In this document: piece after piece, positions 2,576 to 27,146 of the stretch
Numbering within the stretch: position 1 is the first letter of the stretch
Layout of the letters: each line of letters opens with the position of its first letter
Assembly: GCA_964567955.1 (NCBI GenBank)
Contig: CAZMPE010000001.1
Span: forward strand, 1 to 30,654
Source: an uncultured Phycisphaeraceae bacterium
Lineage (GTDB): Bacteria; Planctomycetota; Phycisphaerae; Phycisphaerales; UBA1924
Reading direction: 5' to 3'
DNA: 30,654 nucleotides
Notes under the pieces: model-generated
What the model saw: the letters and a program-made list of their open reading frames with translations, nothing else
Told to the model about the DNA's origin: nothing
The model's database searches: none
Position numbers and translations under genes: made by a program

Positions 2576-3757
2576 ATGACTGACCCTCGCGGAGTCCAAG
2601 GTTCAGGCGAGCACCCCGGCAGCGGCGGACGGGCTATCGGCCTCGGCAGCCCGGGAGAGTCCTCCGTTCCGCCCCTCAGCGCCGGCACGCTCTCGGCCGA
2701 AGGGACCGGAGCCGAGCCGCGCGCCGCACGCGAACAGTTCGACGCCGGTGAACTCGCCATGGTCTGCTCCCATTTCGACGTGGGGGTCATCGAGGCCGTC
2801 CGCGAATATCGGCGCGGCTCCAGCCGCGCACCCAAGGTCGCGCTCAAGACGAGCGGGGGCATGTACCTGCTCAAACGCCGCGCCGCCGGCTCGGGCAAGG
2901 ATTCGGCCAACCGCGTCGCTCTGAGCCACGCTGTGCAGGCGCACCTCGCGCAGCGCCGCTTCCCGCTCCCCCGCCTCGTCCGTACGCGCGAGAACGCCTC
3001 GACAAGCCTCGAGCTCAACGGGCGCGTCTACGAGCTCTTTGAGTTCGTCCCGGGCAACGGGTACGACGGCTCGCTCGACGCCACCGGCGACGCCGGCCGG
3101 CTGCTCGCCTTCTTCCACAAGCTCCTCGGCAGCTTCGAAACCCGCTCCTACACGCCCCCGGTCAACACGTTCCACCGCGCCCGGGGCGTGGAGGAGCACC
3201 TGACCCGCGTGGGCGAGAACCTGCTTCAGCGCGCGGGCTCCACCGCGCCCGCCGCGGACCGCCTCCGCATCACCTACACCGACGCCGCCAGGCGCGTGGA
3301 CCGGATCGGCATCGGCGCATGGCCGCTCACCGTGCTCCACGGGGACTGGCACCCTGGGAACATGGTCTTCCGCGGCTCACGCGTCGTCGCCGTGATCGAC
3401 TACGACTCGGTCCGTGTCGCCCCGCGCATCATCGATATCGCCAACGGCGTCATGCAGTTCTCGATCGTCCGGGCCGGCGACGACCCCGAGCGCTGGCCCC
3501 CCCATCTTGACGAGGGGCGGTTCAAGCGATTCTGCCGCGGCTACGAGACCGTCAAGGACTGTGTCATCAGCAGCGCCGAACTCGAGGCCCTTCCCTGGCT
3601 GATGATCGAGGCCCTGATCGTCGAAGCGCTCATCCCCATCGCCGCCACCGGCTCGTTCGCCGGTCACAGCGCCGCCTCCTTCCTCCGCATGGTCGATGTC
3701 AAGACCGCCTGGCTGGCCCAGCACGCCGCGCGACTGACCGCCCTTGTCGGGGATTGA
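2576..3757 (+). CDS. Aminoglycoside phosphotransferase / type II homoserine kinase-like kinase
   Basis: Catalytic loop LHGDWHPGN and metal-binding VIDYD; YLLKRR lysine strand; LFEFVPG hinge. Confidence 0.8.
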   Translation: MTDPRGVQGSGEHPGSGGRAIGLGSPGESSVPPLSAGTLSAEGTGAEPRAAREQFDAGELAMVCSHFDVGVIEAVREYRRGSSRAPKVALKTSGGMYLLKRRAAGSGKDSANRVALSHAVQAHLAQRRFPLPRLVRTRENASTSLELNGRVYELFEFVPGNGYDGSLDATGDAGRLLAFFHKLLGSFETRSYTPPVNTFHRARGVEEHLTRVGENLLQRAGSTAPAADRLRITYTDAARRVDRIGIGAWPLTVLHGDWHPGNMVFRGSRVVAVIDYDSVRVAPRIIDIANGVMQFSIVRAGDDPERWPPHLDEGRFKRFCRGYETVKDCVISSAELEALPWLMIEALIVEALIPIAATGSFAGHSAASFLRMVDVKTAWLAQHAARLTALVGD

Positions 3758-3827
3758 CGCCCGTTCCGGCCGGGCGGAAATACGTAACGGACCTGCAACA
3801 ACCCGTTCCTCCGGGGGCGTTCTCCGG

Positions 3828-3833
3828 TACAAT
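3828..3833 (+). promoter_or_regulatory. Putative sigma70 -10 element (TACAAT) for the PDZ gene
   Basis: TACAAT about 35 nt upstream of GTG 3868, with GGAGG RBS at 3857-3861; -35 not convincing. Confidence 0.45.
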
Positions 3834-3867
3834 CCCGCAGTCCACGCCCTACGACCGGAGGCCGCGC

Positions 3868-4947
3868 GTGACCATCCGCCGCACCGCCCGACTCTTGATC
3901 TTCTGTGCTGCCGTGGCGGTTCCGCCGGTGGCCGGGCAGGTCGGCCCTCCCGCCCTCGATCAACTCGTGTCGGACCTCGATTCCATGGACGCGGCCCGCC
4001 GCCTCCAGGCTACCGGTGTCCTTTCCGACAGCCCGGATCTGGCCCTCAGGGACCTCGAGCCGATCCTGCTCCGCCCCGACCTCTCGCCGGAGCAGCGGAC
4101 CCGCCTTTTGACCGCGGCGAAGAACCGGTTCCAGTCCGAGCCACGCGCCGCTCTCGGCGTCGAGTTCGACATCGAACTCCCCGAAGAAGCGGGCGTTCAT
4201 TTGCGCCGCACCATCCCCGGTTTCGCCGCCGCGGACATCCTGCGGGCCGGCGACCGCATCGATTACGTCGACGGCGTCCGCCTCGCGGGGCGCGAACACA
4301 TTCGCGCGATGATCATCTCGCGCGACCCGGGCGACACACTGTCCCTCGGCGTCCTGCGCAACGGGTCCCTGATCACCGTCGAGGTCCCCTTGGGCCGATT
4401 CCGCGATCTGGACGACCCGCTCTCCGGGCGCAGCGGCAACAGCATGATCGGCGCCGCGCTGGTCCGCGCCTGGGCGATCCGCTCGGAGCCCTACGCCGCA
4501 CTCGAACACGCCAACACACGGACCATCGACAGCGGCCTGACGCCCGCGGCGTGGCAGCCCGACGGCGCGCCGCCGGCCGGGTCCTTCGATGAGCAGCGCC
4601 GCCAGCCGACCGTGGTGATGGGGGGCACAGCCCGCGGCGGAGTCGATCCTCAACAGGTCGATCTCTCTCAGAACTGGACGCCGGGGAGCGGCCGGGTCAA
4701 TCCCGGCGCCAACGGCCGACAAATGGGTCTGGACGAGATCCTCCGAACACGACTGGCCAACAGCCGTCAGCAAAGGGCTCAACTGGCCCAGATCGCCGGC
4801 CTGCTGCGCCGCCAGGTCGAGTCCCCCAACCTGGGCCCCGTCATGCGTGAGAGCCTCAAACGCGATCTCGACCAGTACGAGCAGGCGATCCGAGCCCTGG
4901 ACGCCTCGATCACCGCGATCCAGGACGAACTGATGCGCCGTCGTTAG
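3868..4947 (+). CDS. Secreted PDZ-domain protein with helical N-terminus and coiled-coil C-terminus
   Basis: Signal-like N-terminus; PDZ signature ALGV...PGFAAADILRAGDRIDYVDG...PGDTLSLGVLRNG; GGAGG RBS before GTG 3868. Confidence 0.75.
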   Translation: MTIRRTARLLIFCAAVAVPPVAGQVGPPALDQLVSDLDSMDAARRLQATGVLSDSPDLALRDLEPILLRPDLSPEQRTRLLTAAKNRFQSEPRAALGVEFDIELPEEAGVHLRRTIPGFAAADILRAGDRIDYVDGVRLAGREHIRAMIISRDPGDTLSLGVLRNGSLITVEVPLGRFRDLDDPLSGRSGNSMIGAALVRAWAIRSEPYAALEHANTRTIDSGLTPAAWQPDGAPPAGSFDEQRRQPTVVMGGTARGGVDPQQVDLSQNWTPGSGRVNPGANGRQMGLDEILRTRLANSRQQRAQLAQIAGLLRRQVESPNLGPVMRESLKRDLDQYEQAIRALDASITAIQDELMRRR

Positions 4948-5133
4948 CCCGCCACGCCCCCGGGGAGCCAGGAATGCCCGAAACGTCCGGAAACCGTGGG
5001 GGTGGCGGGGCCAGACCCGGGCGGGCTCCCCGTGCGTATGGAATTCGTGGAGGTGCGGGGGTCGAAGTGCGCCGTTCGGCGCCGCGCCGCCCGATAAGAG
5101 GAGAAGACGGGGAGTTGGAGGAGTCGTTCGCCC

Positions 5134-8100
5134 ATGGCCACCCGTTCTGAGTCCAACCCGCCGGAAACCCGGACCGCGACCGATCCGGCCGCCATCCGGC
5201 CGGTGGCCGAGAGCCTCCGGCGAGTCCGCATCCGCGCCCGGCTCTGGCTCATCACCAGCGCGCTGGCATGGCTCGTGTGCCTGCTGATCGCCGGTGTCCT
5301 GGCGACCTCGTTTGTCGATTACCTCCTGCTGCTGCCCTCGTGGCTGCGCGCCATCGTCCTGGGAATCGGCGCGATAGCCCTCGCAGGCCTGGTCGTCCGC
5401 TGGCTCGTGCCCGCGGTCCGATTCAATCCCAGCCTGACCGAGGTCGCCTTGCGGATCGAACGGACCCCCGAAGGGCAGAACGCGGGGCTCACCGGTGTGC
5501 TCGCGTCGGGCCTCGAGTTGTCCAAAGCCGAATCCGCCGGCCACCCGACCCCCGCCGCACGTTGGATGGCCGGTCGAGTCATCGAGGACGCCGCGAACCG
5601 CTTCCGTCGCTTCCGCGCCTCCGTCGTTCTGAATAACGTCCGGCTGCGCGAGAGCTTCCTGCTGGTGGTCGCGGCGTTGATCGTCGCCGGCGTCGTCGTC
5701 GCGGCGGCGGGCCTGTCCAATACGCAGATCGGACTGACCCGCGTGCTGGCCCCGTGGAGCGGCGTGGACTGGCCGCGCCGCACCGAGGTCGCCGACGCCA
5801 CCAGTTTCGCCGTGCATCCGCTCGGGACGGCCCTTCCGCTGCGTGCCGCCGTCCTCCGGACCGACGCCGCGCCCGGCCAGACGCGCGTCTCGGCCCGGTA
5901 CCGGCTCTACTCGGGCGGCGAGCCGGGCCCGCTCGTCCGCACCGAACTGCCGGCGCAGGACCGCGACATCCGCGTCTCCTCCCCGACCGGGGGCGAGGAT
6001 CAGTGGGGCGAACTTTATGAACGGCTGATCGAGCCCGCGGCCCTCGGCCTGGTGCGCGAGAGGCCCGATGCCGGCGCGAGCGTCGCCGAGCTCGAGTATT
6101 GGTTCGAGACCTCCGATGACCGGACGCCGGCGCGGCGGATCAAGCTGGTCTACCCGCCCACGGTCACCGGGGCCCGGGCCGAGGTCCGGCCGCCCGCGTA
6201 CGCGCCGCTGTCGGATTCGGGCAGGACGGCCCGGGCCGCGTACGTAGCCGGCACGCACGATCTCGGCCAGGGTCACGATCAGCGGGCGATCGTCGCGCCG
6301 GTCCTCGTCGGCTCGAGCATCACGCTCGAGATCGACTTCAGCAAGCCCGTGATCGCTCCCCCGCCGGAGGGCGACGCACGCCGCTCGTTCCTCTCCGCGG
6401 CGCTGCCCGGTGTCGAATTCGGCGCGGCCGCCGCGATGTCGTTCGGCGAAAGCTCCTGGACGATCGAGTGGACGCTCGCCGACTCGATCCGCATCCCCGT
6501 CGCTGCGCGCGACGAGCACGGGCTGACAAGCCCGGACGAATCGGCTTTCTCGTTCGAGGCGTTGCTCGACCGTCCTCCCGCCGCGGTCGTGACCGTCCCC
6601 GACCACGACGAGTCGGTCCTGGCGACGGCGGTGGTGGACGTGACCGGTGAGGGGCGCGACGACGTGTGGATCGAATCGGTCGCGCTGGACGCGCAGATCG
6701 CGCGCAAGCAGGCCGGATCGATCGGCGCCGCGCCGGAGGCCGTGGGCGAGCCAGCGCGTCTCGGCGCCCGTACCTTCGGCGAGACGGAGCGCCCGACCCA
6801 GGCCACCGTCACCGGACGGGCCGACCTTGCCCCCATGGCCCTCAAACCGGGCGACGAACTCTGGATCACCGCCGTCGTGGTCGACGGCTACAACCTCGAC
6901 GGCGCGCGCCACGAGCCCGTGCGTTCCACGCCCCGCCGACTGCGCGTGATCAGCGAGGACGAACTGGTCGGGCAGATCCGCTCCGAACTCGGAAACGTCC
7001 GCCAGGCCGCGATCAGAATCGATGAGGAGCAGGCCGGATTGCAGCAGTCCGCCGCGGCCGGCGAACTCTCGGCCGAGGAGCGGCGCCGCCAGGCGGGCAT
7101 CATCCAGCGGCTCGAGCGCCAGGGTCAGGCCGTCGAACGGATGTCGGAGCGTGCCGCGCGCAACAGCCTGGCCGACGCCTCGCTGACCGGCATGCTGCGC
7201 GATGTCGGTGAACTGCTGCGCGAGGCGGCCGCCTCCGGCGAAAAGGCCGACGCTCGAATCGACGACGCCGCGCGTCGGCTCGAGGAAGAGGAGTTGCTCC
7301 GTCTCACTCCTGAACAGGCCGAGTCGGTGCAGGAGGCGCAGAAGGAAGTCCGCGAGGCCATCGGTCAGGTCATCGAGATGCTCGACAAGGGCGAGGACAG
7401 CTGGGTCGTCCGGCGTGAGCTCCAGCGGCTGCTCGAGCAGCAGCGCGAGCTGCAGGACCGCACCCGCGCCGCCGGCGAGAACACCGTCGGACGATCCGAT
7501 CAGGAACTCACCCCGCAAGAACGCGCGGAACTCGCCGCCATCGCCGAGCAGCAGCAACGCCTCTCCGAACAGGCCCAGCGCGCCCTGGACGCGATGGAGA
7601 ACCGCGCCCAGCAGCTCCGCGAGGCCGACGCCGCGCAGGCCGCCGCCATGCAGCAGGCCGCCGAACGCGGGCGCAAGGGCCAGGTGCCCGAGCGGATGGA
7701 GCAGGCGTCGCGCAGCGCGGCCCAGAATCAGACCGGCGCGGCCCAGGAGCAGCAGCAGCAGGCGATGGACGCGATGGAGCAGATGCTCGACGACATGGAG
7801 AACGCGGAGCGCAACCGCGACGAGTCGCTCCGGCGCCTGCTCTCGAGCCTCATCGAGTCGCTCGACGGCTTGATCCTGCAGCAGGAGGTCGAGCTCGGCC
7901 GGATCACCGCGGCCCGCGACGACGGGTCGGGCTTCGCGGGCCTCGACGCCGGGATGATCCGCGTGAACCAGAACACGCTCGGCGTGCTCGGCGAGGCCAA
8001 GGCCGCCTTCCGCGAGATGGCGAAGGTCGCCGAGCTGATCGAGAACGCCGCCCAGTCGCAGTCCAACGCCGTGACCAGCCTGCGTGCCGATCCCGTGAAG

Positions 8101-8850
8101 GACGAGGAAGCGGAGCAGGCCGAGCAATCCAGCCTGCGGTCCCTCAAGCTCGCCCGCGAAGAGGCCCGGCGTCAGGAGGAGCAGGCCCGACAGCGCGATC
8201 AGGACCGCACGCGCCGCGAGCTGCGCCGCGTCTACCGCGACGCCCTCGAGCAGCAGATCGCGCTCCGCACCGAGACCGCGCCCTTCCTCGGGCGCGAGCC
8301 CGACCGGCGCGACCGCATGAAGATCCGCGCCTTCGGCGAGCGCCAGGAGACACTGCGGCAGACGCTCGCCGATCTCCACCGACGCACCGAGGAGATGTCC
8401 GAAGCACCCATCTTCGATTTCGCGCACCGGCAGCTCGAGCACGTGCTCGGGAACGCCGCCAAGGCGCTCCGCGCCGGCGCCGCCGCGCCCGCCGTCGGAC
8501 GCGACCAGGACGCCGCCGTCCGCATCCTCCAGTCGCTGGTGGAGGCGCTCGCCGACTCCAAGAACCAGAACGACGAGTTCCGCGACGCCGACAGCGGACA
8601 GCAGGGCGGCGGCGGCGACTCGCAACCGCAACCGCTGCTGCCGGACCTCGCGCAGCTCCGGCTGCTCCGCGGCATGCAGATCCAGGCCGCGGAACTGACG
8701 AGGGCGCTGCACGAATCCAGCGACCCCCGCGCGAAGGACGACATCCGGGCGCTCGGCGAGCTCCAGGGCGAGCTGGCGAGCCAGGCCGAGTCGCTCCTCC
8801 GGAAACTCGAAAGCCCGCAGCCCGGCGAGATGCCGGCGGGAGGGCCGTGA
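5134..8850 (+). CDS. Large membrane-anchored coiled-coil protein (DUF4175-like), 1238 aa
   Basis: Three N-terminal hydrophobic helices, beta-rich middle (RPPAYA, DRPPAAVVTVP, LKPGDEL), long E/Q/R/A coiled-coil C-terminal half; GGAGGAG RBS. Confidence 0.75.
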   Translation: MATRSESNPPETRTATDPAAIRPVAESLRRVRIRARLWLITSALAWLVCLLIAGVLATSFVDYLLLLPSWLRAIVLGIGAIALAGLVVRWLVPAVRFNPSLTEVALRIERTPEGQNAGLTGVLASGLELSKAESAGHPTPAARWMAGRVIEDAANRFRRFRASVVLNNVRLRESFLLVVAALIVAGVVVAAAGLSNTQIGLTRVLAPWSGVDWPRRTEVADATSFAVHPLGTALPLRAAVLRTDAAPGQTRVSARYRLYSGGEPGPLVRTELPAQDRDIRVSSPTGGEDQWGELYERLIEPAALGLVRERPDAGASVAELEYWFETSDDRTPARRIKLVYPPTVTGARAEVRPPAYAPLSDSGRTARAAYVAGTHDLGQGHDQRAIVAPVLVGSSITLEIDFSKPVIAPPPEGDARRSFLSAALPGVEFGAAAAMSFGESSWTIEWTLADSIRIPVAARDEHGLTSPDESAFSFEALLDRPPAAVVTVPDHDESVLATAVVDVTGEGRDDVWIESVALDAQIARKQAGSIGAAPEAVGEPARLGARTFGETERPTQATVTGRADLAPMALKPGDELWITAVVVDGYNLDGARHEPVRSTPRRLRVISEDELVGQIRSELGNVRQAAIRIDEEQAGLQQSAAAGELSAEERRRQAGIIQRLERQGQAVERMSERAARNSLADASLTGMLRDVGELLREAAASGEKADARIDDAARRLEEEELLRLTPEQAESVQEAQKEVREAIGQVIEMLDKGEDSWVVRRELQRLLEQQRELQDRTRAAGENTVGRSDQELTPQERAELAAIAEQQQRLSEQAQRALDAMENRAQQLREADAAQAAAMQQAAERGRKGQVPERMEQASRSAAQNQTGAAQEQQQQAMDAMEQMLDDMENAERNRDESLRRLLSSLIESLDGLILQQEVELGRITAARDDGSGFAGLDAGMIRVNQNTLGVLGEAKAAFREMAKVAELIENAAQSQSNAVTSLRADPVKDEEAEQAEQSSLRSLKLAREEARRQEEQARQRDQDRTRRELRRVYRDALEQQIALRTETAPFLGREPDRRDRMKIRAFGERQETLRQTLADLHRRTEEMSEAPIFDFAHRQLEHVLGNAAKALRAGAAAPAVGRDQDAAVRILQSLVEALADSKNQNDEFRDADSGQQGGGGDSQPQPLLPDLAQLRLLRGMQIQAAELTRALHESSDPRAKDDIRALGELQGELASQAESLLRKLESPQPGEMPAGGP

Positions 8851-8851
8851 C

Positions 8852-9547
8852 ATGAGAGCGAACACGCTGATGGCCGGGCTCGCGGCGATCCTGATCGGCG
8901 CCTCCGGCGCGATGGGGCAGGAAGCGCCGACGCCCCCCGCGCCGCCGCCGGCCGAGCCGCCCAGGGACGAGCTGCCGACGCTCGACGATCTGCTCGGTCT
9001 CCCGCAAGCGCCCGACGCCGCCCGTCGCACGCCGGGAACGGACCCGGCGTCGACGGAACTCGAGCGCAAGCTGTCGATGCGCGAAGCCGCGCAGCAATTC
9101 AAGCAGGCCGTCGTGCTCATGAGCGAAACGGCCGACCGCATCCGCGGCGCGGGCGATACCGGCATCGCCACCCAGCGCCTGCAGGAGGATGTGGTCCGCA
9201 AGCTCGACATGCTGATCCAGGCCGCGGAGCAGAACTCGCAGCAGAGCCAGCAGTCCTCCTCGTCCTCGTCCTCCGGCGACCCCGACCGGCAGAGCCAGCC
9301 CAACCAGCAGCGCCCCGAGCAGGGCGAGCAGCAGCAGAACCAGGGCGACAACCGTGCCGAGGCGACCCCGCCGGGACGCGCCGAGGGCGCGCTCGACCCC
9401 AACCTCGCCGCACGCGGCGCCGCCTGGGGCTCGCTGCCCGCGCGGGTGCGCGACGCCCTGATGCAGGGCACGCAGGAGCAGTACAGCTCGGTCTACCAGC
9501 GCCTGACCGAGGCCTATTACCGCAAACTCGCGGAGTCCCCGAAATGA
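8852..9547 (+). CDS. Secreted Gln/Ser-rich hypothetical protein with conserved C-terminal WGxLP...Y...YY..LA helix
   Basis: Signal peptide (MRANTLMAGLAAILIGASGAMG), helical hairpin, low-complexity QS tract; starts 1 nt after upstream stop. Confidence 0.75.
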   Translation: MRANTLMAGLAAILIGASGAMGQEAPTPPAPPPAEPPRDELPTLDDLLGLPQAPDAARRTPGTDPASTELERKLSMREAAQQFKQAVVLMSETADRIRGAGDTGIATQRLQEDVVRKLDMLIQAAEQNSQQSQQSSSSSSSGDPDRQSQPNQQRPEQGEQQQNQGDNRAEATPPGRAEGALDPNLAARGAAWGSLPARVRDALMQGTQEQYSSVYQRLTEAYYRKLAESPK

Positions 9548-10614
9548 ACCGCGCCTGGCCCGCCGTCATCCTCGCCGCCGGCCTCGCGCTGCCGGTGTCC
9601 GCGCGCCAGGAGGCCGTCCGCGCCGACGGCGGCACCAGCGCCCAGAACAACGCCCTCGCCGACGAGATCACGCCCGAACTCGACGCCGCCGTCCTCAAGG
9701 GGCTCAAGTACCTCGCCGCACAGCAGACCGACGACGGCTCCTTCGGCGAAGGCCGCTACGGACGCAACGTCGCCGTCACCGCCCTCGCCTGCCTCGCCTT
9801 CATGGGCGACGGGCACATGCCGGGGCGCGGCGAGTACGGCCCCATCGTTCAGAAGGGGCTCGAGTACATCCTCGCCAACTGCACCGAGAGCGGCCTCATC
9901 GCCGGCGACGCCTCCAACGGACCGATGTACGGGCACGGGTTCGCCGCGCTCTTCCTCGGCGAGATCTGCGGCATGACGCAGGGCGGCGGCGACACGCAGC
10001 TCGCCTCGCGCGTGCACGAAGCGCTCGTCAAGGCGATCCACCTGATCGAGAAGACGCAGAACGAGCAGGGCGGCTGGCGCTACAACCCCGTCCCCTACGA
10101 CGCGGATGTCAGCGTCACCATCTGCCAGATCATGGCTCTGCGGTCCGCGCGCAACGCCGGGCTCGAGGTCTCCAAGCAGACCATCGACCGCGCCGTCGAG
10201 TACGTCCGCCGGTGCCAGAACCCCGACGGCGGCTTCAAGTACCAGCTCGAGAGCGGCTCGAGCGGCTGGCCCCGCTCCGCCGCGGGCGTCGCCAGCCTGT
10301 ACTACGCCGGCATCTACCAGGACGACGCGATCGACAAGGGTATCGAGTACCTCAAGCGCGAGGCCCTCCCCGGCGCGACCGCCCCGTCCCGGGCCCATTA
10401 CTACTACGGACACTACTACGCCGTGCAGGCCATGTACCTCGCCGGCGGGGACCACTGGTCCAAGTGGTGGCCCGCGATCCGCACCGAACTGCTCGCCGAA
10501 CAGTCCGGTGAGGGGGGTTGGGAGGATCGCAGCGTCGGTCCCAGTTATGCCACCTCCATGAGCCTCATCATCCTCCAGATGCCCAAGCGGTATCTGCCGA
10601 TCTTCCAGAAGTAG
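9544..10614 (+). CDS. Secreted prenyltransferase/squalene oxidase repeat protein ((alpha/alpha)6 barrel)
   Basis: QW-like repeats QQTDDGSF, TQNEQGGWRY, CQNPDGGFKY, EQSGEGGW; signal peptide; ATGA overlap with upstream gene. Confidence 0.85.
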   Translation: MNRAWPAVILAAGLALPVSARQEAVRADGGTSAQNNALADEITPELDAAVLKGLKYLAAQQTDDGSFGEGRYGRNVAVTALACLAFMGDGHMPGRGEYGPIVQKGLEYILANCTESGLIAGDASNGPMYGHGFAALFLGEICGMTQGGGDTQLASRVHEALVKAIHLIEKTQNEQGGWRYNPVPYDADVSVTICQIMALRSARNAGLEVSKQTIDRAVEYVRRCQNPDGGFKYQLESGSSGWPRSAAGVASLYYAGIYQDDAIDKGIEYLKREALPGATAPSRAHYYYGHYYAVQAMYLAGGDHWSKWWPAIRTELLAEQSGEGGWEDRSVGPSYATSMSLIILQMPKRYLPIFQK

Positions 10615-10639
10615 CCCCGATCCGTTCACGCCGAATGCC

Positions 10640-11863
10640 ATGAACCATCCGTCTGTTCGAGCCCGGTCCCTGGTCGTGTGCGCCGCCGCGCTCGGCGCCG
10701 CGTCGTACGCCGGAGCGCAGAGCGCCCCGCGCATCCTGCTCGACCGCGACCTGCGCGAGCGCACCGTCACGCTGACAGGCCTGGACAACCGGACCATCAC
10801 CTACAGCGACGAGTCCGGCCTGCTCCGCACCGAGTCCGTCTCCGAGTACGTCGCCGTCCTCGCGCCCGCGGCGCCCGACGTGCCCGAGGGAACGTCCATG
10901 ATCTGGTTCACCGACGGCCGGCGGCTCACCGGTTCGGTCCGCCCCGCCGAGGGAGACGCGCTCAACTGGTCGCATCCCGTTTTCGGAGTCGTCCGTGTCC
11001 GCCTCGACGATGTCCGGCGCCTCTTCCTCGCCGACGCCGCGCCCGCCGCGGCAAAGCCGGAGCCCCCGCAGGGCGAAGACCTGATCGTGCTCCTGAACGG
11101 CGATCGCCTGACCGGTTTCGTGGATTCCATCGGCTCGCCGATCGTCCTCGAGGTCGGGGGCCAGCCGCGCGAGATCCCGCTCGATCGCGTCGCGGAGGTG
11201 CGCCTGGCCAACCCGATCGCGCGTGCCCGCGGCATGACGGTCTGGCTCGCCGACGGCAGCGCCGTGGGCGTCGCCTCGATCCGCACGAACCGCGCGGGCG
11301 AGACGCGCATCGTCCCGCGATGGAACGCCAACGCCGAGGACCCCCGCCAGCCCACCGAATCGCCCGAGGACCCCGGCGCCGCGGTCCCGCTCGCCGACAT
11401 CATCGCCGTCGCCTTCGACGCCGAGCGGCTGATCCCGCTGGCCTCGACGCCCGTGCGTGACCAGCGCCCCGCCGCCGGGCGCCCGTGGGCCGAGTCGATC
11501 TCGACGGGCGACGCCGCCTCGGCCCTTCTCGGCGCGCCCGATGTCATCCTTCCCGGCCCGATGACCGTCGAGTGGGACCTGCCCGCCTCCGCTTCGCGCT
11601 TCGGCTGCACGGTCGAACTGCCCAGCGCCATGCGGACGTGGGGCGATTGCGAACTGGTGGTGTCCATCGTGGGCGCGGACGGAAAGAGTTCCGAGGTCTT
11701 CCGGCGGCGCCTGAACGCCGACGCCCCGACCGCCTCGGTCAACGTCGCGCTCAAGGGCTCGTCGCGCCTGCGCATCGCGGTCGAGGCGGGCGAGTACGGC
11801 CCGATCCAGGACCGCCTCGTGCTGCACCGGGCACTCGTGCTCGTCGACCGCTCGCCCGGCTAA
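10640..11863 (+). CDS. Secreted protein with repeated small beta modules and C-terminal NPCBM/NEW2-like domain
   Basis: Signal peptide; repeats IWFTDGRRLTG / IVLLNGDRLTG / VWLADGS; C-terminal RFGCTVE...WGDCELVV...DG...VNVALKG...LRIAVEAG..G...D pattern of NPCBM. Confidence 0.6.
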   Translation: MNHPSVRARSLVVCAAALGAASYAGAQSAPRILLDRDLRERTVTLTGLDNRTITYSDESGLLRTESVSEYVAVLAPAAPDVPEGTSMIWFTDGRRLTGSVRPAEGDALNWSHPVFGVVRVRLDDVRRLFLADAAPAAAKPEPPQGEDLIVLLNGDRLTGFVDSIGSPIVLEVGGQPREIPLDRVAEVRLANPIARARGMTVWLADGSAVGVASIRTNRAGETRIVPRWNANAEDPRQPTESPEDPGAAVPLADIIAVAFDAERLIPLASTPVRDQRPAAGRPWAESISTGDAASALLGAPDVILPGPMTVEWDLPASASRFGCTVELPSAMRTWGDCELVVSIVGADGKSSEVFRRRLNADAPTASVNVALKGSSRLRIAVEAGEYGPIQDRLVLHRALVLVDRSPG

Positions 11864-13035
11864 CGCATCTTGATCGAGGTCAGCGCGATCACCACCAGCA
11901 GAACGCTGATGATCCAGAATCGCGCGACCACCTGCTGCTCCGTCCACCCGCCCAGGTGCAGGTGATGGTGGTACGGCGCGCAGCGGAAGATCCGCTTCCC
12001 GCCCGACGCCTTGAAATACGCGACCTGCAGCGTCACCGACGCGATCTCCGCCAGGAAGACGCCGCACATCACCAGCAGCACCACCTCCTGCCGGATCACC
12101 ACCGCCCCGTACCCCAGCAGCCCGCCGAGGCACAGCGACCCCGTGTCCCCCATGAAGACCTGCGCCGGCGAACAGTTCCACCACAGGAACCCCAGGCTCG
12201 CCCCGACCATCGCCCCGCAGACCACCGCCAGCTCGTCGGCGCGATAGATGTACGGCACCAGCAGCGTCTGCGCCGCCGCCTGGTCGCCCGCGATCAGCGT
12301 CAGCACCAGCAGACCCAGACCGACCGCCACCGTCACGCCGGACGCCAGCCCGTCCATCCCGTCCGTGATGTTCACCGCGTTGCTCATCCCCGCCGTCATC
12401 AGCACCGCGATCAAGATGAACACGCCCTGCGGCAGGAAGATCAGCGCCGGGTTGAGCGTCGCCGCCTTGTCGAGGTACGTCTTCTGGAACGGCAGGTTGA
12501 GCACGTGCGCCAGGTCCGCCGCCGTCCCCGGCGAATCCCCCGCGCGATAGGCGAACATCCCGATCAGCAGGCCCAGGCCGATCTGAAAGACCAGCTTCTC
12601 CCACGCGTACAGGCCCTGCCGGCTCTTGAGCCCGCGCCGGGCCGAGGTCAGCTTCAGCCAGTCATCCACCCCTCCAAGGACCGCCAGCCAGACCAGCACG
12701 ATCAGCGCCGTGTAGACGTAGAAGTGGCTGATGTCCGCCAGCAGCAGCACCGACGCCCCGATCGCCCCCGCGATCAGGATGCCGCCCATCGTCGGCGTGT
12801 TCGCCTTGGACACCGCGCTCTTGCGCAGCGCCTCCGCGTCCGTCAGCCCCGTGTCGCCGATCTTCATCTTCGTCAGCCACGCGATCGTCCGCCGGCCGAA
12901 GAAGATCACGATCAGGAACGCGAGAAACGCCGCCGCCAGCGCCCGGAACTGGATCTGGTCGAGAATCTGCAGCGCCCACAGCAGATCGTGGTCGGCCAGC
13001 CAGTCGCGGATCTTGTCGTAGAGGATGTACAGCAT
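11860..13035 (-). CDS. mraY: Phospho-N-acetylmuramoyl-pentapeptide transferase
   Basis: TPTMGG, DDWLK, NAVNITDGMDGLA, FMGDTGSLCLG, APYHHHL motifs; multiple TM helices. Confidence 0.97.
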   Translation of the reverse strand: MLYILYDKIRDWLADHDLLWALQILDQIQFRALAAAFLAFLIVIFFGRRTIAWLTKMKIGDTGLTDAEALRKSAVSKANTPTMGGILIAGAIGASVLLLADISHFYVYTALIVLVWLAVLGGVDDWLKLTSARRGLKSRQGLYAWEKLVFQIGLGLLIGMFAYRAGDSPGTAADLAHVLNLPFQKTYLDKAATLNPALIFLPQGVFILIAVLMTAGMSNAVNITDGMDGLASGVTVAVGLGLLVLTLIAGDQAAAQTLLVPYIYRADELAVVCGAMVGASLGFLWWNCSPAQVFMGDTGSLCLGGLLGYGAVVIRQEVVLLVMCGVFLAEIASVTLQVAYFKASGGKRIFRCAPYHHHLHLGGWTEQQVVARFWIISVLLVVIALTSIKMR

Positions 13036-13061
13036 GAAAGGCCGGCGCCACGAGCCGGAAG

Positions 13062-14483
13062 TCAGCCCGGGCCGGTCAGACTATCACGGGCACGCAACGC
13101 CGCGGCGACCCGCTCCAGGCGCATCCGGCGTGACCCTTTGAGCAGCACGGTGTCCCCCGGGCGCAGCACGTCCGCCGCGGCCGCCACGTGGACGTCGTCG
13201 GTGTCGGCGATCACGATCGCCCCGGTGTCGCCCACGGCCCTGGCCGCACGGGCCATGTTCGGGCCCACCAGCACCAGCAGGTCCGCCGCACCGCGCCCGC
13301 GGATCTCCCGGATCAGGTCCTCGTGCGCGCCGTCGGAGTGCTCGCCCAGCTCGAGCATGTCCCCCAGGACGGCGACACGCCGCCCGCCGCCGATGTCGTT
13401 GAGCGTGATGATCGCGGCCGCCATCGAGTCGGGGTTGGCGTTGTACGCGTCGTTGATCACCCGCACGCCGTGGATCGTCGAAGATTCCAGCCGCATCTCC
13501 GCCCCGCGCACCGCGTCCAGCCCCGCCTGCAGCGCCCCGTTCTCCACTCCGAACCGCCGGCCCACCGCGATCGCCGCCGTCGCATTGAGCGCGTTGTGCC
13601 GCCCGAGCAGCGGCACGCGGAACGCCCCGCGCTCGTTCACCGTGAACGTCACTCCCGACCCGTCCTGCCGGACGTCCCCGGCCCGCAGGTCCGCGCCGCT
13701 CCCCGTCCCGAACGTCACCAGGTTGAACGGCGCCCGACCGTCCGGACCCGCCCTGAACCGCTCGCCGATCACCTCCAGCAGGAACGGCGCGTCGGCGTTG
13801 ACGACGGCCAGCCCGCCCTGGCGCAGCGACGCCAGCTGCGAGGCCTCCTCCTCCGCCACGCCGCGCAGCGACGACAGGCCTTCGAGGTGCTCGCGCCCGA
13901 CCCCGGTGATGACCGCCACATCAGCGCCGACCACCCGAGCCAGCTCGTCCACTTCGCCGGGCGCGTTCGTCCCGACCTCGCACACCAGGTACTGGTCGCC
14001 CGGACGCGCCCCGAAGATCGTCAGCGGCACGCCCACGTGGTTGTTGAAGCTCTTCACCGACGCCGACCCGCGCAGCCCGCGCGACAGGATCGCGTCGATC
14101 AGCCGCGACGTCGTCGTCTTCCCGTTCGAGCCCGTCACCGCGATCACCCGCGTGCCGTCCAGCGTCTTGCGGTACGCCGCGCCCAGCTTCAGAAGCGCAC
14201 GGCGCGTCCCGGCGACCCGCAGCACGCCGCAGTTGGGCGCCACCGGCGAATCCGGCGCCTCCTCGACGATCGCCAGCGCCGCACCCGCCCGCGCCGCATC
14301 GCCCACGTGCAGGTGCCCGTCCGTGCGATCTCCACGGATCGCCACGAAGATCTGCCCCGGCTTGATCGCGCGGCTGTCGGTGCTCACGGCGGGGTGGGGG
14401 TCCAGCGCCCGCGCCGACGCCGGCCGGGCCAGCCAGGTCCCGCCGAGCACGGCCCGGATGTTGTCAAACTCCCAGAAGCTCAT
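13062..14483 (-). CDS. murF: UDP-N-acetylmuramoyl-tripeptide--D-Ala-D-Ala ligase
   Basis: STDSR, AVTGSNGKTTT P-loop, SFNNHVGVPLT, NDAYNANPDSM, VLGDMLELG, LLKGSR. ATG 14483 overlaps the murE stop (ATGA). Confidence 0.96.
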   Translation of the reverse strand: MSFWEFDNIRAVLGGTWLARPASARALDPHPAVSTDSRAIKPGQIFVAIRGDRTDGHLHVGDAARAGAALAIVEEAPDSPVAPNCGVLRVAGTRRALLKLGAAYRKTLDGTRVIAVTGSNGKTTTSRLIDAILSRGLRGSASVKSFNNHVGVPLTIFGARPGDQYLVCEVGTNAPGEVDELARVVGADVAVITGVGREHLEGLSSLRGVAEEEASQLASLRQGGLAVVNADAPFLLEVIGERFRAGPDGRAPFNLVTFGTGSGADLRAGDVRQDGSGVTFTVNERGAFRVPLLGRHNALNATAAIAVGRRFGVENGALQAGLDAVRGAEMRLESSTIHGVRVINDAYNANPDSMAAAIITLNDIGGGRRVAVLGDMLELGEHSDGAHEDLIREIRGRGAADLLVLVGPNMARAARAVGDTGAIVIADTDDVHVAAAADVLRPGDTVLLKGSRRMRLERVAAALRARDSLTGPG

Positions 14484-16084
14484 GCTCGACGGCCGCCCCT
14501 CGCCCGGACACCCGCCGCCTTCGCGGGCCGGCGCGTCACGATGACCGGCTTGCGCGCGCCCGGCCTGGCTCGCTTCACGGGCGCAAGCAGTTCCCGCGCG
14601 ACCTCGCGATCGTCGAAGTGCGTCCTGATCGTCCCCCCCTTGCCGTCGGAGAGGATCTGGTCGGTCTCGTGCCCCTTGCCCGCGATCAGGACGACGTCGC
14701 CCGCGCGCGCATCGGCGATCGCCCGCGCGATCGCGCTCCTCCGGTCGGCGTCGACAACCGTTCCCCTCCGCTGGCGCGCCGGCACGCCCGCGATGATCTC
14801 GTCGATGATCGCCGACGGCTCCTCCGTCCGCGGATTGTCGCTGGTGATGTACACCGCGTCCGCTAGCTCCGCCGCCGCCGCGCCCATCCGCGCCCGCTTC
14901 GTCCGGTCGCGGTCCCCGCCGCATCCGAAGACGACCCGCAGCGTGCCGCCCTTGTCCATCAGCGGACGGATCGCCCCCAGCACCTGCCGCAGCGCGTCAT
15001 CGGTGTGCGCGTAGTCCACGAGGACGGAATACGGATGGCGCGCCCCGGTCACCACCTCCAGCCGCCCCGGCGGCGCCGCCGCGTGCTCAAGAGCCTCAGC
15101 GATATCCGCCGTCTTCACGCCCGCGCCGTGACACGCCGCCGCCGCCTGCAGCGCATTCATCACGTTGTGACGCCCGACCAGCGGCAACAGGCAGGTGATC
15201 GCCCCCCACGGGCCGGCAAAGGCCGCCCGCGTACCCGCCATGGTCATCGCTCTGATCGACGCGCGGCACTCGCCCGCCTTCACCTTGCGTCCGACCGCCG
15301 CGCCGATCGTGCACCGCAGCACCGGCGCCCGGCAGTCGCGGATCATCCGCGCCGACGCCCGATCGTCCGCGTTCACGATCGCCAGCCCGTTCTCCGGAAG
15401 CATCGCGAACAGCTTCGCCTTCGCGTCCGCGTACTTCTCCATCGTCCCGTGGTAGTCGAGGTGGTCCCCCGTCAGGTTCGTGAAGACACCGATCTTGAAC
15501 GCCAGCGCCGCCGGCCGCTCCTGGTCCAGCGCGTGACTCGAGACCTCCATCACCGCCGCGCGGCAGCCGGAATCCACCATCACCCCGAACGTGCGGCTCA
15601 GCTCCGTCGCCGGCGGCGTGGTCAGGATCGACGGCGCGATTTCAGCGCCGTCGTCGATCAGCACGGTCCCCATCAGCCCGCAGCGCACCCCGCACCGGTT
15701 GAGGATCTGGTGGATCAGGTGCGCCGTCGTCGTCTTCCCGTTCGTCCCGGTCACCCCGATCAGCGTCAGTCGCCCGGAGGCGGAGCCATAGAACCGCTCC
15801 GCGATCTGCGCCGCCGCCAGCTCGACGCCCGTGCCGGCCAGCAGCAGCGCCGCACCGGACCCCTCCGGAAGCCGGAGCGACCGGTCATCCGTCAGCACCG
15901 CGACCGCGCCCGCGTCCAGCGCCGCCCGCACGAACTCCCGCCCGTCGGCCTTCTGGCCCGTCCGCGCGATGAAGAGCGAACCGGTCACCACCGTCCGGCT
16001 GTCGTCCGTGATGTCGCAGATGCGGATCGCGCCGGCGGCGGCCGTACGGATGTTCAGTCCCGCGATCAGGTCGGCGAGCATCAT
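14480..16084 (-). CDS. murE: UDP-N-acetylmuramoyl-L-alanyl-D-glutamate--2,6-diaminopimelate ligase
   Basis: GVTGTNGKTTT, MEVSSHALDQ, FTNLTGDHLDYH, VDYAHT, VFGCGGDRD, SDNPR, IAGKGHE. Confidence 0.97.
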   Translation of the reverse strand: MMLADLIAGLNIRTAAAGAIRICDITDDSRTVVTGSLFIARTGQKADGREFVRAALDAGAVAVLTDDRSLRLPEGSGAALLLAGTGVELAAAQIAERFYGSASGRLTLIGVTGTNGKTTTAHLIHQILNRCGVRCGLMGTVLIDDGAEIAPSILTTPPATELSRTFGVMVDSGCRAAVMEVSSHALDQERPAALAFKIGVFTNLTGDHLDYHGTMEKYADAKAKLFAMLPENGLAIVNADDRASARMIRDCRAPVLRCTIGAAVGRKVKAGECRASIRAMTMAGTRAAFAGPWGAITCLLPLVGRHNVMNALQAAAACHGAGVKTADIAEALEHAAAPPGRLEVVTGARHPYSVLVDYAHTDDALRQVLGAIRPLMDKGGTLRVVFGCGGDRDRTKRARMGAAAAELADAVYITSDNPRTEEPSAIIDEIIAGVPARQRRGTVVDADRRSAIARAIADARAGDVVLIAGKGHETDQILSDGKGGTIRTHFDDREVARELLAPVKRARPGARKPVIVTRRPAKAAGVRARGGRRA

Positions 16085-23937: not shown

Positions 23938-24810
23938 TCAGGCGCGACGACGGCGGGCGGCGAAGAGACCGCCAAGGCCGAGCAGGCCGAGCGCCGACGG
24001 CGCCGGGACGATGCTCACGTTGTCCCAGCCGGTCGCGTTGTTCACGTTCCCCGTGAACAGACGGATATCGGTCGGCAGCGGCTTGGCCAGCACGTTGTTC
24101 TGACCGCCGGCCAGATACCAGCCCAGACCGCTGACGTCCACGGTCGTCACCGGCCCGCCGGCCGTGATGTCCTGGATCGACACCGACAGGATCTGGTTCG
24201 TGCCGAAGTCCCACTTCGTCGACTGGTGAATCCAGTGATCGGTGGGGATGTTCTGCCAGGCAGCCCCGGGCGACTGGAACGCCGGAGCCGCTCCGCCCGC
24301 GGCGCTGAACACGCCGTAGACGATCTCGTACGAAGTCGGGCTGGCCGGCACCATGTACCGCATCAGCTGCTGCCAGTAGTTCGCCGTGCTCGAGGGCTGC
24401 AGCGAGAAGCTGCCGAGGTTGTTCACGGGCGTGACGCCCGCCGGCCCGACGAAGAGGCCGTTGACGTCCCAATCGGCAGTCCAGATGTTCGTGCTGCTGA
24501 AGTCATGAGCGTGCTGGGCGCGCCCGATGTTGTTCGGAGCCGCCGTGCCCGCCACGCCGACGAACTGATCGCCGCCGTTCGGGTTGTTCGAGAAGCCGAT
24601 CGCGTTGCCGGCGTACGTGTGCACCTTGAAGTCAACGCTGCCCGCGACGGGGTTGTACCACCCGTCCTGGCCGCCGCCGCCGAAACCATTCGTCAGCAGC
24701 GTCCCGGCCGCGGAACCGGTGTAGACCGGGCCCTCGAAACCGGTGATGAAGTCGGCCCGGGCAGCCGCGGCCGCTCCGAGTCCGGCAAGAACAAAAGCAA
24801 GCACTCTCAT
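23938..24810 (-). CDS. Secreted PEP-CTERM-like (VPAP) protein, paralogue 1 (290 aa)
   Basis: GGAGGAG RBS, signal peptide ending ARA, C-terminal VPAPSALGLLGLGGLFAARRRRA (sorting motif, TM helix, Arg cluster). Confidence 0.85.
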   Translation of the reverse strand: MRVLAFVLAGLGAAAAARADFITGFEGPVYTGSAAGTLLTNGFGGGGQDGWYNPVAGSVDFKVHTYAGNAIGFSNNPNGGDQFVGVAGTAAPNNIGRAQHAHDFSSTNIWTADWDVNGLFVGPAGVTPVNNLGSFSLQPSSTANYWQQLMRYMVPASPTSYEIVYGVFSAAGGAAPAFQSPGAAWQNIPTDHWIHQSTKWDFGTNQILSVSIQDITAGGPVTTVDVSGLGWYLAGGQNNVLAKPLPTDIRLFTGNVNNATGWDNVSIVPAPSALGLLGLGGLFAARRRRA

Positions 24811-25072
24811 GGTCAGCTCCTCCCACAAACGAACGGGGTTTCCGTTGCCGATTGCCCGTCTGCTCCGCGTGAACGCCACCGGTGCCCGGGCCCAACCGAC
24901 TCTTGTCACTCTCCGAACCACGAACAAAGGCAACGCCCCGCCGCCGCGGGAGCCGCGCCGAATCGATCACTCAACTTTGAACACGTGCCTCGACATTCTC
25001 TCTCCGCGACCGGTCGTCGACCGCCGTTCCGCCAGAGCGGCGCGCCCCGGCGGTCGACTCAAGAACGAGCCC

Positions 25073-25983: not shown

Positions 25984-26862
25984 TCAAGCGCGACGCCGGC
26001 GGGCGCCGAACAGTCCGGCGAGGCCGAGCAGCGCAACGGCCGAAGGAGCCGGGATGATGGACACATTGTCCCAGGCCAACGCGTTGCGATTGCCGTTGCC
26101 CGAGTTCGTGCCGCCGAACAGCCGGAAGCCGGTCGGCGTCGGGGCTCCGGCCGCGCCGCCGAAGAGGTATCGGTCAACAGGATTGTGCACGACCGTCGTG
26201 TTGGTCGTCAGATCCGTGATCGAGACGCTCAGAATCTGATTGGTGCCCAGATCGAACGTCGTGCCCCACCGGTACCAGTGGTCCATCGCCAGGTTCTGGA
26301 AGGCCGGGTCGGGCACCGACTCCGTCAGCTGCGTGCCCGCGGCGTTGAACCAGACGTAGTCGGCGTTCCAGGCGCCGCCCGTGGCCGTGTTGGCCCAGCG
26401 GGCCAGGCCGATGAACGACTGCTGCCCGGGAAAGACCTGCGTGGAAAAGCTCCCGATGTTCTGGGAGAACGGGGCTCCCGCTCCCAGGAGGGCCGTCGCG
26501 GCCGCGATATCAAAGGACGCCGTCCAGACGCCGGTGCCTGATCCGTACGTGATGTCCCGCTGCGCCCGCGAGAACGGCTGCGGCAACCCCTGCGCCGGGT
26601 CGGCCCCGATGGAGGCCGCGAACTGCGTGCCGCCAGTCGGATTCAGCGGAAGCCCCAGGGCGTTGCCGGCGTAGGTCATCACCAGGCCGTCCTGGCTTCC
26701 CGCGACCGGGATGTAGAACCCGTCCTGCCCCGTCAGGACAGTGCCGGCGGGCGATCCAGCGTAGGTGTTCGGCTCAAACCCCGTGGTGAACTGGGCCTGG
26801 GCCTCGCTGCCTAGCGCGACGGCCAGCGCAAGAACAAACGGACTCGAGAATCGAACGGTCAT
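25984..26862 (-). CDS. Secreted PEP-CTERM-like (IPAP) protein, paralogue 2 (292 aa)
   Basis: AAAGGAGGAG RBS, signal peptide ending AQA, C-terminal IPAPSAVALLGLAGLFGARRRRA. Confidence 0.85.
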   Translation of the reverse strand: MTVRFSSPFVLALAVALGSEAQAQFTTGFEPNTYAGSPAGTVLTGQDGFYIPVAGSQDGLVMTYAGNALGLPLNPTGGTQFAASIGADPAQGLPQPFSRAQRDITYGSGTGVWTASFDIAAATALLGAGAPFSQNIGSFSTQVFPGQQSFIGLARWANTATGGAWNADYVWFNAAGTQLTESVPDPAFQNLAMDHWYRWGTTFDLGTNQILSVSITDLTTNTTVVHNPVDRYLFGGAAGAPTPTGFRLFGGTNSGNGNRNALAWDNVSIIPAPSAVALLGLAGLFGARRRRA

Positions 26863-27146
26863 GTTCTCCTCCTTTGGCAAGTCGCCAAACCGTCCGGCAG
26901 CGGCGCTCCCGGACATCTTGTCTCTCTTTGGACTGTAACGCGCGCCCCTGATCGGCCCCAAAGGAAATGCGCCCGCAAGATCGGAAAATCCTGCGCCCGC
27001 GCCCTTTGTTCGGGCCCTGCTTACGAGGTGTTGGGCAGAAGTTTGCAGCTCGATGATGACGCCGCGCACAGCACGATTCCGGACTTCGCGATCGAGTTCG
27101 ACCCCGCCGCCCGATTCACGCCGGACCCCGCATCCATCCGGTCCGC

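Follow-up and report, generated by a model that had tools for sequence, protein, structure and literature searches.

A four-gene, probably periplasmic block in a Phycisphaerales bacterium as the detached distal half of a DUF58/BatA/vWA gene cluster

Gene clusters of the DUF58/BatA/von Willebrand factor A (vWA) type are widespread in bacteria, and their function is unsolved. The system has been named Bat in Bacteroides and spirochaetes and cmdA-D or RL3499-RL3502 in Rhizobium. MoxR ATPases act with partners carrying vWA domains or metal-ion-dependent adhesion sites (MIDAS) as assembly or remodelling chaperones (Snider and Houry 2006, cited in PMC5700661). In Borrelia, the BatA-type vWA domain faces the periplasm (PMC5700661), and the function of the reference operons is described as unresolved (PMC5700661, PMC3557215). 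Defects of envelope and morphology in Rhizobium have been tied to this operon family (PMC5700661 and its references); the title of Vanderlinde 2011, which PMC5700661 and PMC5118466 both cite, describes the Rhizobium operon as required for cell morphology and envelope integrity. Here, we describe a block of four genes, g1 to g4, at positions 5134-11863 of a 30,654 nt stretch of contig CAZMPE010000001.1 (assembly GCA_964567955.1), which was analysed as a whole and is called the window below. The window has a G+C content of 70%, and the closest relatives of its proteins all belong to Phycisphaerales (Planctomycetota). What is new is a distal module specific to Phycisphaerales, which in the window lies apart from the core of the known cluster type.

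The block consists of four open reading frames (ORFs) on one strand, with lengths given in amino acids (aa):

5134-8850, plus strand: g1, 1238 aa, ORF call
8852-9547, plus strand: g2, 231 aa, ORF call
9544-10614, plus strand: g3, 356 aa, ORF call
10640-11863, plus strand: g4, 407 aa, ORF call

A preliminary description of this DNA had given these four ORFs and junctions of 1, -4, and 25 nt, and re-reading reproduced all of them exactly: g1 and g2 are joined by TGAcATG (1 nt) and g2 and g3 by ATGA (-4 nt), and 25 nt separate g3 from g4. Purine-rich ribosome-binding sites of the downstream genes are located within the preceding genes. The G+C content at third codon positions was 0.89-0.90 in g1-g4, and G+C by codon position was as in genuine genes. 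By the same measure, a 1935 aa antisense ORF at 3664-9471 (minus strand), which covers g1 and g2, was rejected as an artefact of the 70% G+C and should not be annotated; the other long overlapping ORFs of the window are likewise high-G+C artefacts. Signal peptides were judged by eye from the sequence, and g2, g3, and g4 each start with a signal-peptide-like segment.

To follow the block across species, we used a one-genome-per-species scan, which yielded 67 loci, and a set of 69 fetched loci, in which g2-g4 were identified by tblastn with the window proteins; loci with at least 3.6 kb of DNA past g1 entered the downstream count. The order g1-g2-g3-g4 on the same strand was found in 56 of the 57 Phycisphaerales loci with enough downstream DNA. 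The single exception (L052, 7304-11828) has no g4 recognisable by tblastn or by profile hidden Markov model (HMM). Identities to the window proteins ranged across loci from 35 to 54% for g1, 36 to 58% for g2, 58 to 80% for g3, and 29 to 45% for g4, and these values indicate conservation over long divergence rather than recent common descent. Over 61 loci, the nearest possible starts of g2 and g3 lie at a median of -4 nt relative to the preceding gene, and the g3-g4 junction is looser (median +3 nt). The gene order is confirmed to be conserved beyond chance. The four genes had been described beforehand as a tightly coupled, probably extracytoplasmic set, and their sequence features, spacing, and co-conservation bear this out.

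The genes 5' of this block connect it to the known cluster type. In the distant-homologue locus L069, a single strand carries DUF58, a 778 aa BatA_N+VWA_2 protein, a 781 aa vWA-like membrane protein (hereafter X781), g1, g2, g3, and g4, and Pfam confirmed the domain identities of the three proximal proteins. DUF58-BatA-X781 lies directly 5' of g1 in 46 of the 69 fetched loci (tblastn), corresponding to 42 of the 62 loci of the g1 tree that have enough upstream DNA. BatA and X781 overlap by 4 nt in nearly all loci. A spacer between X781 and g1 is always present in joined loci (median ~177 nt, minimum 56 nt), whereas the other junctions are of about -4 nt. The cluster is made up of two tightly coupled, separable blocks, and its ancestral layout is DUF58, BatA/vWA, and the vWA-like membrane protein, followed after ~180 nt by g1-g2-g3-g4.

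In a neighbour-joining tree of g1, the 42 joined loci stand beside 20 split loci, which fall into at least eight clades; the break point in the split lineages is the spacer that separates the two blocks elsewhere. The window shares a clade with L001 and L005; these two are likewise split, and each has a PDZ gene 5' of g1. Its closest long-contig relative, P0003 (56% identical), is split too (PDZ-g1-g2-g3-g4). L001 lies on contig 23 of the sister metagenome-assembled genome (MAG) GCA_020849105.1, and this contig carries g1-g4 (g1 = IT437_04820). A search with X781 found the other half on contig 4 of the same MAG (L072), in the order Dus, DUF58, BatA, X781 (IT437_00830), and an FHA/PP2C phosphatase gene. 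The proximal genes being on another contig, the proximal half exists in a lineage with the layout of the window but has moved. In the window itself, neither DUF58, BatA, nor vWA genes were found by tblastn and Pfam annotation, nor MoxR (AAA_3) by Pfam annotation and a Walker A scan, so that the earlier statement that ATPase, DUF58, and vWA genes are absent holds for all 30.6 kb. We conclude with high confidence that the window block is the detached distal half of a DUF58/BatA/vWA cluster. The preliminary description had presented a stand-alone operon, a view contradicted by the 42 of 62 loci that adjoin DUF58-BatA-vWA and by the sister MAG, which keeps those genes on another contig; it had also named a displaced half of a characterised MoxR-vWA operon as the finding that would speak against it, and in the main point this is what we found, the parent cluster itself being functionally uncharacterised. 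For annotation, the lesson is that where a DUF4175-like block has no nearby ATPase or vWA gene, the other half should be looked for elsewhere in the genome.

Additionally, an FHA plus PP2C (SpoIIE) phosphatase gene follows DUF58-BatA-vWA on the same strand in L072 (12514-14121) and also in L073 and L074. A Ser/Thr kinase with TPR repeats lies next to the L072 phosphatase on the opposite strand, a possible regulatory link.

In the window, the position of the spacer is occupied by the following element:

4948..5133, plus strand: spacer before g1, 186 nt, with a GGAGGAG ribosome-binding site 9 nt ahead of the ATG

Since a scan for sigma-70 promoters and intrinsic terminators remained at background level and showed no sigma-70 consensus in this spacer, we only infer that it probably holds the block's own promoter. 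A recurrent TGGAATGG(G/A)TCGG motif 5' of g1 was considered as a regulatory element and rejected, since it lies within the vWA gene, at the 3' end of the coding sequence, and encodes the peptide LEWxGRRL.

Beyond PHYCISPHAERALES, two readable g1-type clusters, from Planctomyces and Gemmatirosa, were reached through X781. Planctomyces sp. SH-PL62 carries a cluster on plasmid pPL62-3 (VT85_RS29525-RS29820) with the following genes on one strand:

pPL62-3, same strand as the rest: DUF58 gene, frameshifted
pPL62-3, same strand as the rest: BatA gene
pPL62-3, same strand as the rest: vWA protein gene, X781 homologue (2e-39)
pPL62-3, same strand as the rest: 744 aa protein gene, N-terminal two thirds of g1 (HMM E 1.9e-17)
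pPL62-3, same strand as the rest: 542 aa secreted helical protein gene (h542), collinear with g1 ~807-1198 (hhalign 79.6%, E 1.5e-5)
pPL62-3, same strand as the rest: 182 aa protein gene (h182), g2 homologue (BLASTP 9e-7)
pPL62-3, same strand as the rest: 912 aa NPCBM protein gene (Pfam 2.3e-34, 118.8 bits)

The order DUF58, BatA, vWA, g1-N, g1-C, g2, and NPCBM parallels the Phycisphaerales cluster. It differs in that g1 is cut in two, so that the equivalent of g1 plus g2 comprises three genes (744, 542, and 182 aa), in that the NPCBM protein has an extra DUF1583-like domain, in the absence of a g3-like toroid gene, and in being plasmid-borne. In Gemmatirosa kalamazoonensis (Gemmatimonadota), MoxR (AAA_3, 1.3e-59), DUF58, BatA, and a gene for a 1268 aa g1-like protein follow one another, and 5 kb upstream there is an X781-like gene. 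X781 homologues were also found in replicons of Azospirillum, Methylobacterium, and Paracoccus; Azospirillum has DUF58 together with an X781-like gene and no g1-like gene nearby. From these neighbourhoods, the core is MoxR/DUF58/BatA/X781, of the Rhizobium RL3499-RL3502 type. The g1/g2 pair is a frequent accessory of this core and has been met with in two phyla or more; the NPCBM-type protein accompanies it in planctomycetes, and g3 was seen only in Phycisphaerales.

These relatives bear on the alternative that g1-g4 form an autonomous envelope operon, whose frequent place beside DUF58/BatA/vWA would then reflect inherited gene order and no functional link. Such an operon would fit the ~180 nt spacer that always lies between the vWA gene and g1, the unlinking of the block at least eight times, intact each time, and the lack of a MoxR gene nearby. 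The adjacency is nevertheless kept in 42 of 62 species even though g1 is only 35-54% identical; moreover, g1-like, g2-like, and NPCBM proteins occur with DUF58/BatA in another planctomycete class, and a g1-like protein occurs with MoxR/DUF58/BatA in another phylum. This recurrence across class and phylum makes inertia alone hard to accept, and we regard an uncoupled operon as fairly unlikely.

The largest protein of the block, g1, divides into three regions:

5746..6948, plus strand, preceded by 5134..5745, plus strand: the latter, g1 residues 1-204, is the membrane anchor (three transmembrane segments) with the strongly conserved Arg-rich loop 93-173; the former, g1 residues ~205-605, is an array of beta-sandwich (immunoglobulin (Ig)-like/macroglobulin-like) domains
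6955..8847, plus strand: g1 residues ~608-1238, charged Gln/Ala-rich helical region, modelled as stacked bundles; a disordered, Gly-rich linker lies close to the C-terminus

Hydropathy placed hydrophobic segments at residues 39-57, 74-92, and 176-194, in agreement with the three transmembrane helices (TM1-TM3) described before, next to an Arg-rich N-terminus and the Arg-rich loop 93-173. Residues P93, A94, F97, P99, A105, L106, E109, L123, A124, and G126 are invariant in the anchor region. By the positive-inside rule, the N-terminus would lie inside, followed by a TM1/TM2 hairpin, a cytoplasmic loop 93-173, TM3, and a large periplasmic part. An AlphaFold model was available for the g1 homologue P0093 (1190 aa, 42% identical; 83-sequence alignment), with a predicted local distance difference test (pLDDT) of 89.9 and a predicted template-modelling score (pTM) of 0.64. 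Its order is a TM1/TM2 hairpin, a TM2-TM3 loop, TM3, ~350 residues of beta-sandwich, and ~620 residues of helices. The TM2-TM3 loop, the best conserved stretch of the N-terminus, is helical in the model; the beta strands, at 205-556, agree with the beta domains reported for g1. The helical region of g1 contains up to 54% E/R/K/D/Q per 100 residues and had been read as a long coiled coil. The P0093 helices, at 30-63 residues each with pLDDT >90, are interrupted by short turns, which points to stacked helical bundles rather than a single coiled coil, and a disordered Gly-rich segment (1101-1126) precedes the last two.

Word-seeded searching found 164 homologues of g1, all from Phycisphaerae and all unannotated. 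When 1.84 billion proteins were searched with a profile of its N-terminal 650 residues, 7322 cluster representatives matched at E<=1e-3, of which 765 reached E<=1e-30; the relatives listed from this search are the best 150 of 7322. Pfam and NCBIfam gave no meaningful match of window g1 to a curated family, and tblastn of g1 against plasmids gave no match. Foldseek with the P0093 model returned only generic multi-Ig proteins with low TM-scores, namely receptor ectodomains, the GldM periplasmic domain, and macroglobulin (MG) arrays of C3/alpha-2-macroglobulin (E about 1e-4 to 3e-4, TM 0.07-0.10), and weak Big_7 matches occurred in 4 of 19 g1 homologues. DUF4175 (PF13779), one of the families proposed for checking, was matched above its threshold by one homologue, P0102 (29.1 bits vs 27.3), with residues 332-569 of the beta region aligned to model positions 186-386; window g1 itself had no match at E<0.1, and 18 of the 19 tested homologues did not match the model. 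TIGR02302 gave no match at E<=1 in any of 19 aligned g1 sequences. The Gemmatirosa g1-like protein scored 26.0 bits (cutoff 27.3) against the collinear later part of DUF4175 (model 621-766). On this sequence evidence, g1 is best called a putative distant DUF4175 relative.

The second gene encodes a protein with 11% Gln and 8% Ser, consistent with the secreted, QS-rich protein described earlier. A conserved LDDLLGL motif near its N-terminus is followed by a central helix and a Gln/Ser-rich linker, and the C-terminal part contains a second conserved motif, WGxLPxRxRxxLxQGxxxxxSxxYxxLTExYYxxLAE. The protein matched no Pfam or NCBIfam family, and its orthologues gave low-complexity noise only. In six species (L007, L008, L021, L027, L037, and L062; for example, L037 2757-6938), g1 and g2 form a single in-frame ORF of ~1400-1520 aa that ends in the g2 motif. 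By a Rosetta-stone type of argument, these fusions indicate that the two products act together, and g2 amounts to a C-terminal part of g1 that can be encoded separately. The C-terminus of the Gemmatirosa g1-like protein gave a weak positional match to g2 (hmmsearch i-E 0.0087; hhalign probability 6.9%), a hint that g2 corresponds to the extreme C-terminus of single-chain DUF4175-like proteins, for which the in-frame fusions are the real evidence. Splitting and joining of genes at domain boundaries is apparently tolerated in the g1/g2 family.

The third protein, a single toroid of ~330 residues, is the most conserved of the block (58-80% identity across loci). It matched SQHop_cyclase_C (PF13243; 48.1 bits, 1.1e-12, cutoff 26.1) and Prenyltrans (PF00432; 30.8 bits, 2.7e-7, cutoff 26.5), both above cutoff, as expected from its earlier assignment as a secreted prenyltransferase-repeat barrel. 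Conserved motifs include MYGHGFA, GGWRY, ALRSARNAG, WPRSAAG, and LPIFQ. The motif GPMYGHGFAALFLGEICGMTQ at residues ~128-148, which hardly varies among 59 species and includes a conserved Cys, could be a ligand or reactive site of the toroid; together, the strong conservation and the invariant motifs suggest a specific ligand or partner. No protein identical to window g3 was on record by exact look-up. Both Pfam matches and the conservation of g3 could also be taken to mean that it is a genuine isoprenoid enzyme, a prenyltransferase or class II cyclase, and that the operon serves to modify a lipid, for instance a hopanoid. We consider this highly improbable: g3 is one 330-residue toroid with a signal peptide, which does not fit the two-domain architecture of squalene-hopene and oxidosqualene cyclases; its sequence lacks the DxDD catalytic motif; of the solved class II terpene cyclases, it matches the QW-type repeats only; and its scores of 24-36 bits with the NCBIfam cyclase models stay far below the cutoffs of 322-851 bits.

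The fourth protein contains four to five small beta modules (repeated xNGDRLxGxV), followed by a C-terminal jelly roll:

11507-11851, plus strand: NPCBM/CBM51-like jelly roll of g4, residues ~290-404 (AlphaFold and Foldseek)

Its AlphaFold model had a pLDDT of 87.6 and a pTM of 0.85. In Foldseek, the C-terminal 115 residues superposed on CBM51 structures (2vmi, TMt 0.73; 2vmh, 0.69; 2vmg, 0.67; 7js4, E 2.5e-7) at 8-13% sequence identity. Against Pfam NPCBM (PF08305), g4 scored 16.5 bits, below the cutoff of 23.9, and its L069 orthologue 20.9 bits; the earlier description of g4 as NPCBM-like therefore stands at the level of fold and not at that of the Pfam score. All 25 homologues of g4 are from Phycisphaerales.

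The folds of g3 and g4 invite two other explanations. One is glycan capture or degradation, with g4 as lectin, g3 as a six-hairpin glycosidase-like enzyme acting on external polysaccharide, and g1/g2 as cell-surface anchor. CBM51 modules normally occur in glycoside hydrolases, and both the CBM51-like fold of g4 and the alpha/alpha toroid of g3 would suit it. The matches of g3, however, are to terpene-cyclase/prenyltransferase repeats and to no glycoside hydrolase family, the conserved neighbourhood has no transporter, TonB-dependent receptor, or sugar-metabolism genes, and the conserved partners are vWA/DUF58 proteins, so that this explanation appears unlikely. The other is a split alpha-2-macroglobulin-like periplasmic trap formed by MG-like Ig domains of g1, a thioester-domain-like toroid in g3, and a CUB/jelly-roll-like g4. 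The thioester domain and the g3-type toroid share the alpha/alpha toroid fold, the LFLGExCGMT motif of g3 has a conserved Cys, and Foldseek placed the g1 beta region near C3/alpha-2-macroglobulin MG arrays (E about 3e-4). The TM-scores of 0.07-0.10 are nevertheless those of any multi-Ig protein, and g3 has neither the CGEQ thioester motif nor an A2M/TED Pfam match at E<0.1; we give such a trap very little credence.

Downstream of the block, mraY (11860-13035, minus strand) converges on g4 with a 4 nt stop/stop overlap (CTAA); the two genes are thus tail-to-tail and not head-to-head, as had been stated. The mraY, murF, and murE row extends over 11860-16084 (minus strand), with queA and a SpoIID-domain gene next on the same strand. 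Across loci, a convergent mraY lies no more than 600 nt from g4 in 30 of 54 cases, and in both the window and L068 the next genes are murF and murE; the remaining 24 have other g4 neighbours, for example VKOR/DsbA or HDOD. This neighbourhood raises the alternative that the block is an accessory of peptidoglycan synthesis or cell division, a view to which the Acinetobacter division protein AdvA, with its DUF4175-labelled N-terminus (PMC7481262), would lend itself. Given that the mraY row is on the opposite strand, that 24 of 54 loci lack it, and that AdvA has no Bat context and would be similar only in a short region near the membrane segments, we find a division accessory distinctly unlikely.

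Upstream, a membrane-anchored PDZ protein with a coiled-coil-like C-terminal tail is encoded directly 5' of g1 (3754-4947, plus strand). PDZ and g1 are adjacent, with a gap of ~190-215 nt, in all four members of the split clade (the window, L001, L005, and L076), whose other flanks differ; in L018 and L023, a PDZ homologue lies a few kb from the block. The PDZ protein could be a lineage-specific fifth partner or a mere syntenic neighbour.

Taking these lines together, the reading we favour, and think somewhat probable, is that the products of g1-g4 form the distal, periplasmic module of the MoxR/DUF58/BatA-vWA envelope system in the version found in Phycisphaerales. A periplasmic scaffold touching glycans is its most plausible physical picture; for the mechanism, as against the anatomy, our confidence is low to moderate. 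The earlier idea that the block might shape an enlarged planctomycete periplasm is speculation. Three helices would anchor g1 in the inner membrane, where the conserved cytoplasmic loop could dock a DUF58/MoxR pair. From there, g1 would extend its Ig-like array and then its helical bundles into the periplasm, and g2, once the C-terminal tail of g1 itself, would bind the far end. The g3 toroid and g4, with its beta repeats and CBM51-like lectin domain, might tie the assembly to wall or outer-membrane glycan. Assembly or remodelling of the complex could then fall to the MIDAS/vWA domains that BatA and the third protein expose in the periplasm, acting with a MoxR ATPase whose gene lies elsewhere, and the output would be envelope integrity or shape, as for the Rhizobium operon.

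Several observations weigh against this reading. The proximal half was located in the sister MAG, and its presence in the genome of the window itself is a prediction. No MoxR-type Walker A motif was found in the ORFs of the 69 loci or within 10 kb of the cluster, so that involvement of an ATPase is only assumed from other phyla. The block, with at least eight separations and a spacer of its own, is clearly expressible and might act independently. Searching for RNA runs holding the window sequence turned up none, only DNA metagenome runs (sand and bioreactor), and co-transcription of g1-g4 is for this reason inferred from how the genes are spaced and conserved. That g4 binds glycan and that g3 has a ligand are predictions from fold only. 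Finally, a Leptospira Bat operon gave no phenotype (PMC3557215), which implies that an envelope-integrity output is not general.

Going further, we tentatively suggest, as a rather doubtful extension, that g1/g2, g3, and g4 might be the missing effector end of Bat/Cmd-type systems: an ATPase/MIDAS-controlled, periplasm-spanning strut that grips glycan of the wall or outer membrane and sets or repairs envelope spacing in Planctomycetota. If true, this would give a first mechanistic handle on an operon family that is conserved across many phyla and has been without functional assignment for more than 25 years.

The other genes of the window are tpiA, a YicC-like gene, an APH-family kinase gene, PDZ, murF, murE, queA, a SpoIID-domain gene, dprA, lexA, a methyltransferase gene, CorA, MscL, and nrfA. 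The segment 23900-27500 has a lower G+C content (0.655-0.67 vs ~0.70-0.73 elsewhere) and may be foreign or fast-evolving DNA; ORFs 23938-24933 and 25984-27480 (both minus strand) had no Pfam match. At 30013-30654 (minus strand), a gene for a cytochrome c552 (NrfA-type nitrite reductase) runs past the window end, so that only its 3' part is included; MscL (29659-30006) and CorA (27147-28160) are near it. Neither g1-g4 nor the DUF58, BatA, and vWA proteins encoded in L069 matched any PADLOC model of anti-phage defence, MoxR-vWA conflict systems included, at E<=0.01.

Compared with known systems, the block resembles the Bat operons and R. leguminosarum cmdA-D in that most Phycisphaerales loci join it with DUF58, BatA_N+vWA, and a second vWA-like membrane protein; the proteins of these systems are located in the envelope, their vWA domains facing the periplasm (PMC5700661). 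It differs in that the described Bat operons contain nothing equivalent to g1-g4 and have BatC (TPR), BatD, and BatE (SH3/TPR) instead, and in that MoxR adjoins no Phycisphaerales locus. BatC, BatD, and BatE did not turn up in the Pfam lists of neighbours, no search having been aimed at them. The DUF4175/TIGR02302 family presumably has two to three N-terminal transmembrane helices followed by a long external Gln/Gly-rich region, and by hydropathy, composition, and model g1 shows three N-terminal transmembrane segments and a long, probably extracytoplasmic Gln/Gly-rich part; the Phycisphaerales protein differs in being divided into g1 and g2 in most species. The C-terminus of g4 is predicted to be the same beta jelly roll as the CBM51/NPCBM modules of Clostridium perfringens GH95, GH98, and ZmpB, without the catalytic domain attached there. 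In the sense of working like it only, g1 recalls GldM of type IX secretion, with an inner-membrane anchor, a helical part, and an Ig-like chain across the periplasm (Foldseek 6ey4, E 2.7e-4). It is not a member: the order is reversed (Ig first, helices last), the TM-score is 0.10, and there is neither sequence similarity nor a type IX secretion context. Against this background, what is added here is a set of periplasmic partners that travel with the Bat/Cmd core in Phycisphaerales, some of them also beyond that order, comprising a scaffold, its detachable tail, a toroid, and a CBM51-like protein. This partner set and the two-block structure of the cluster make the role of these long-unsolved operons somewhat more approachable.

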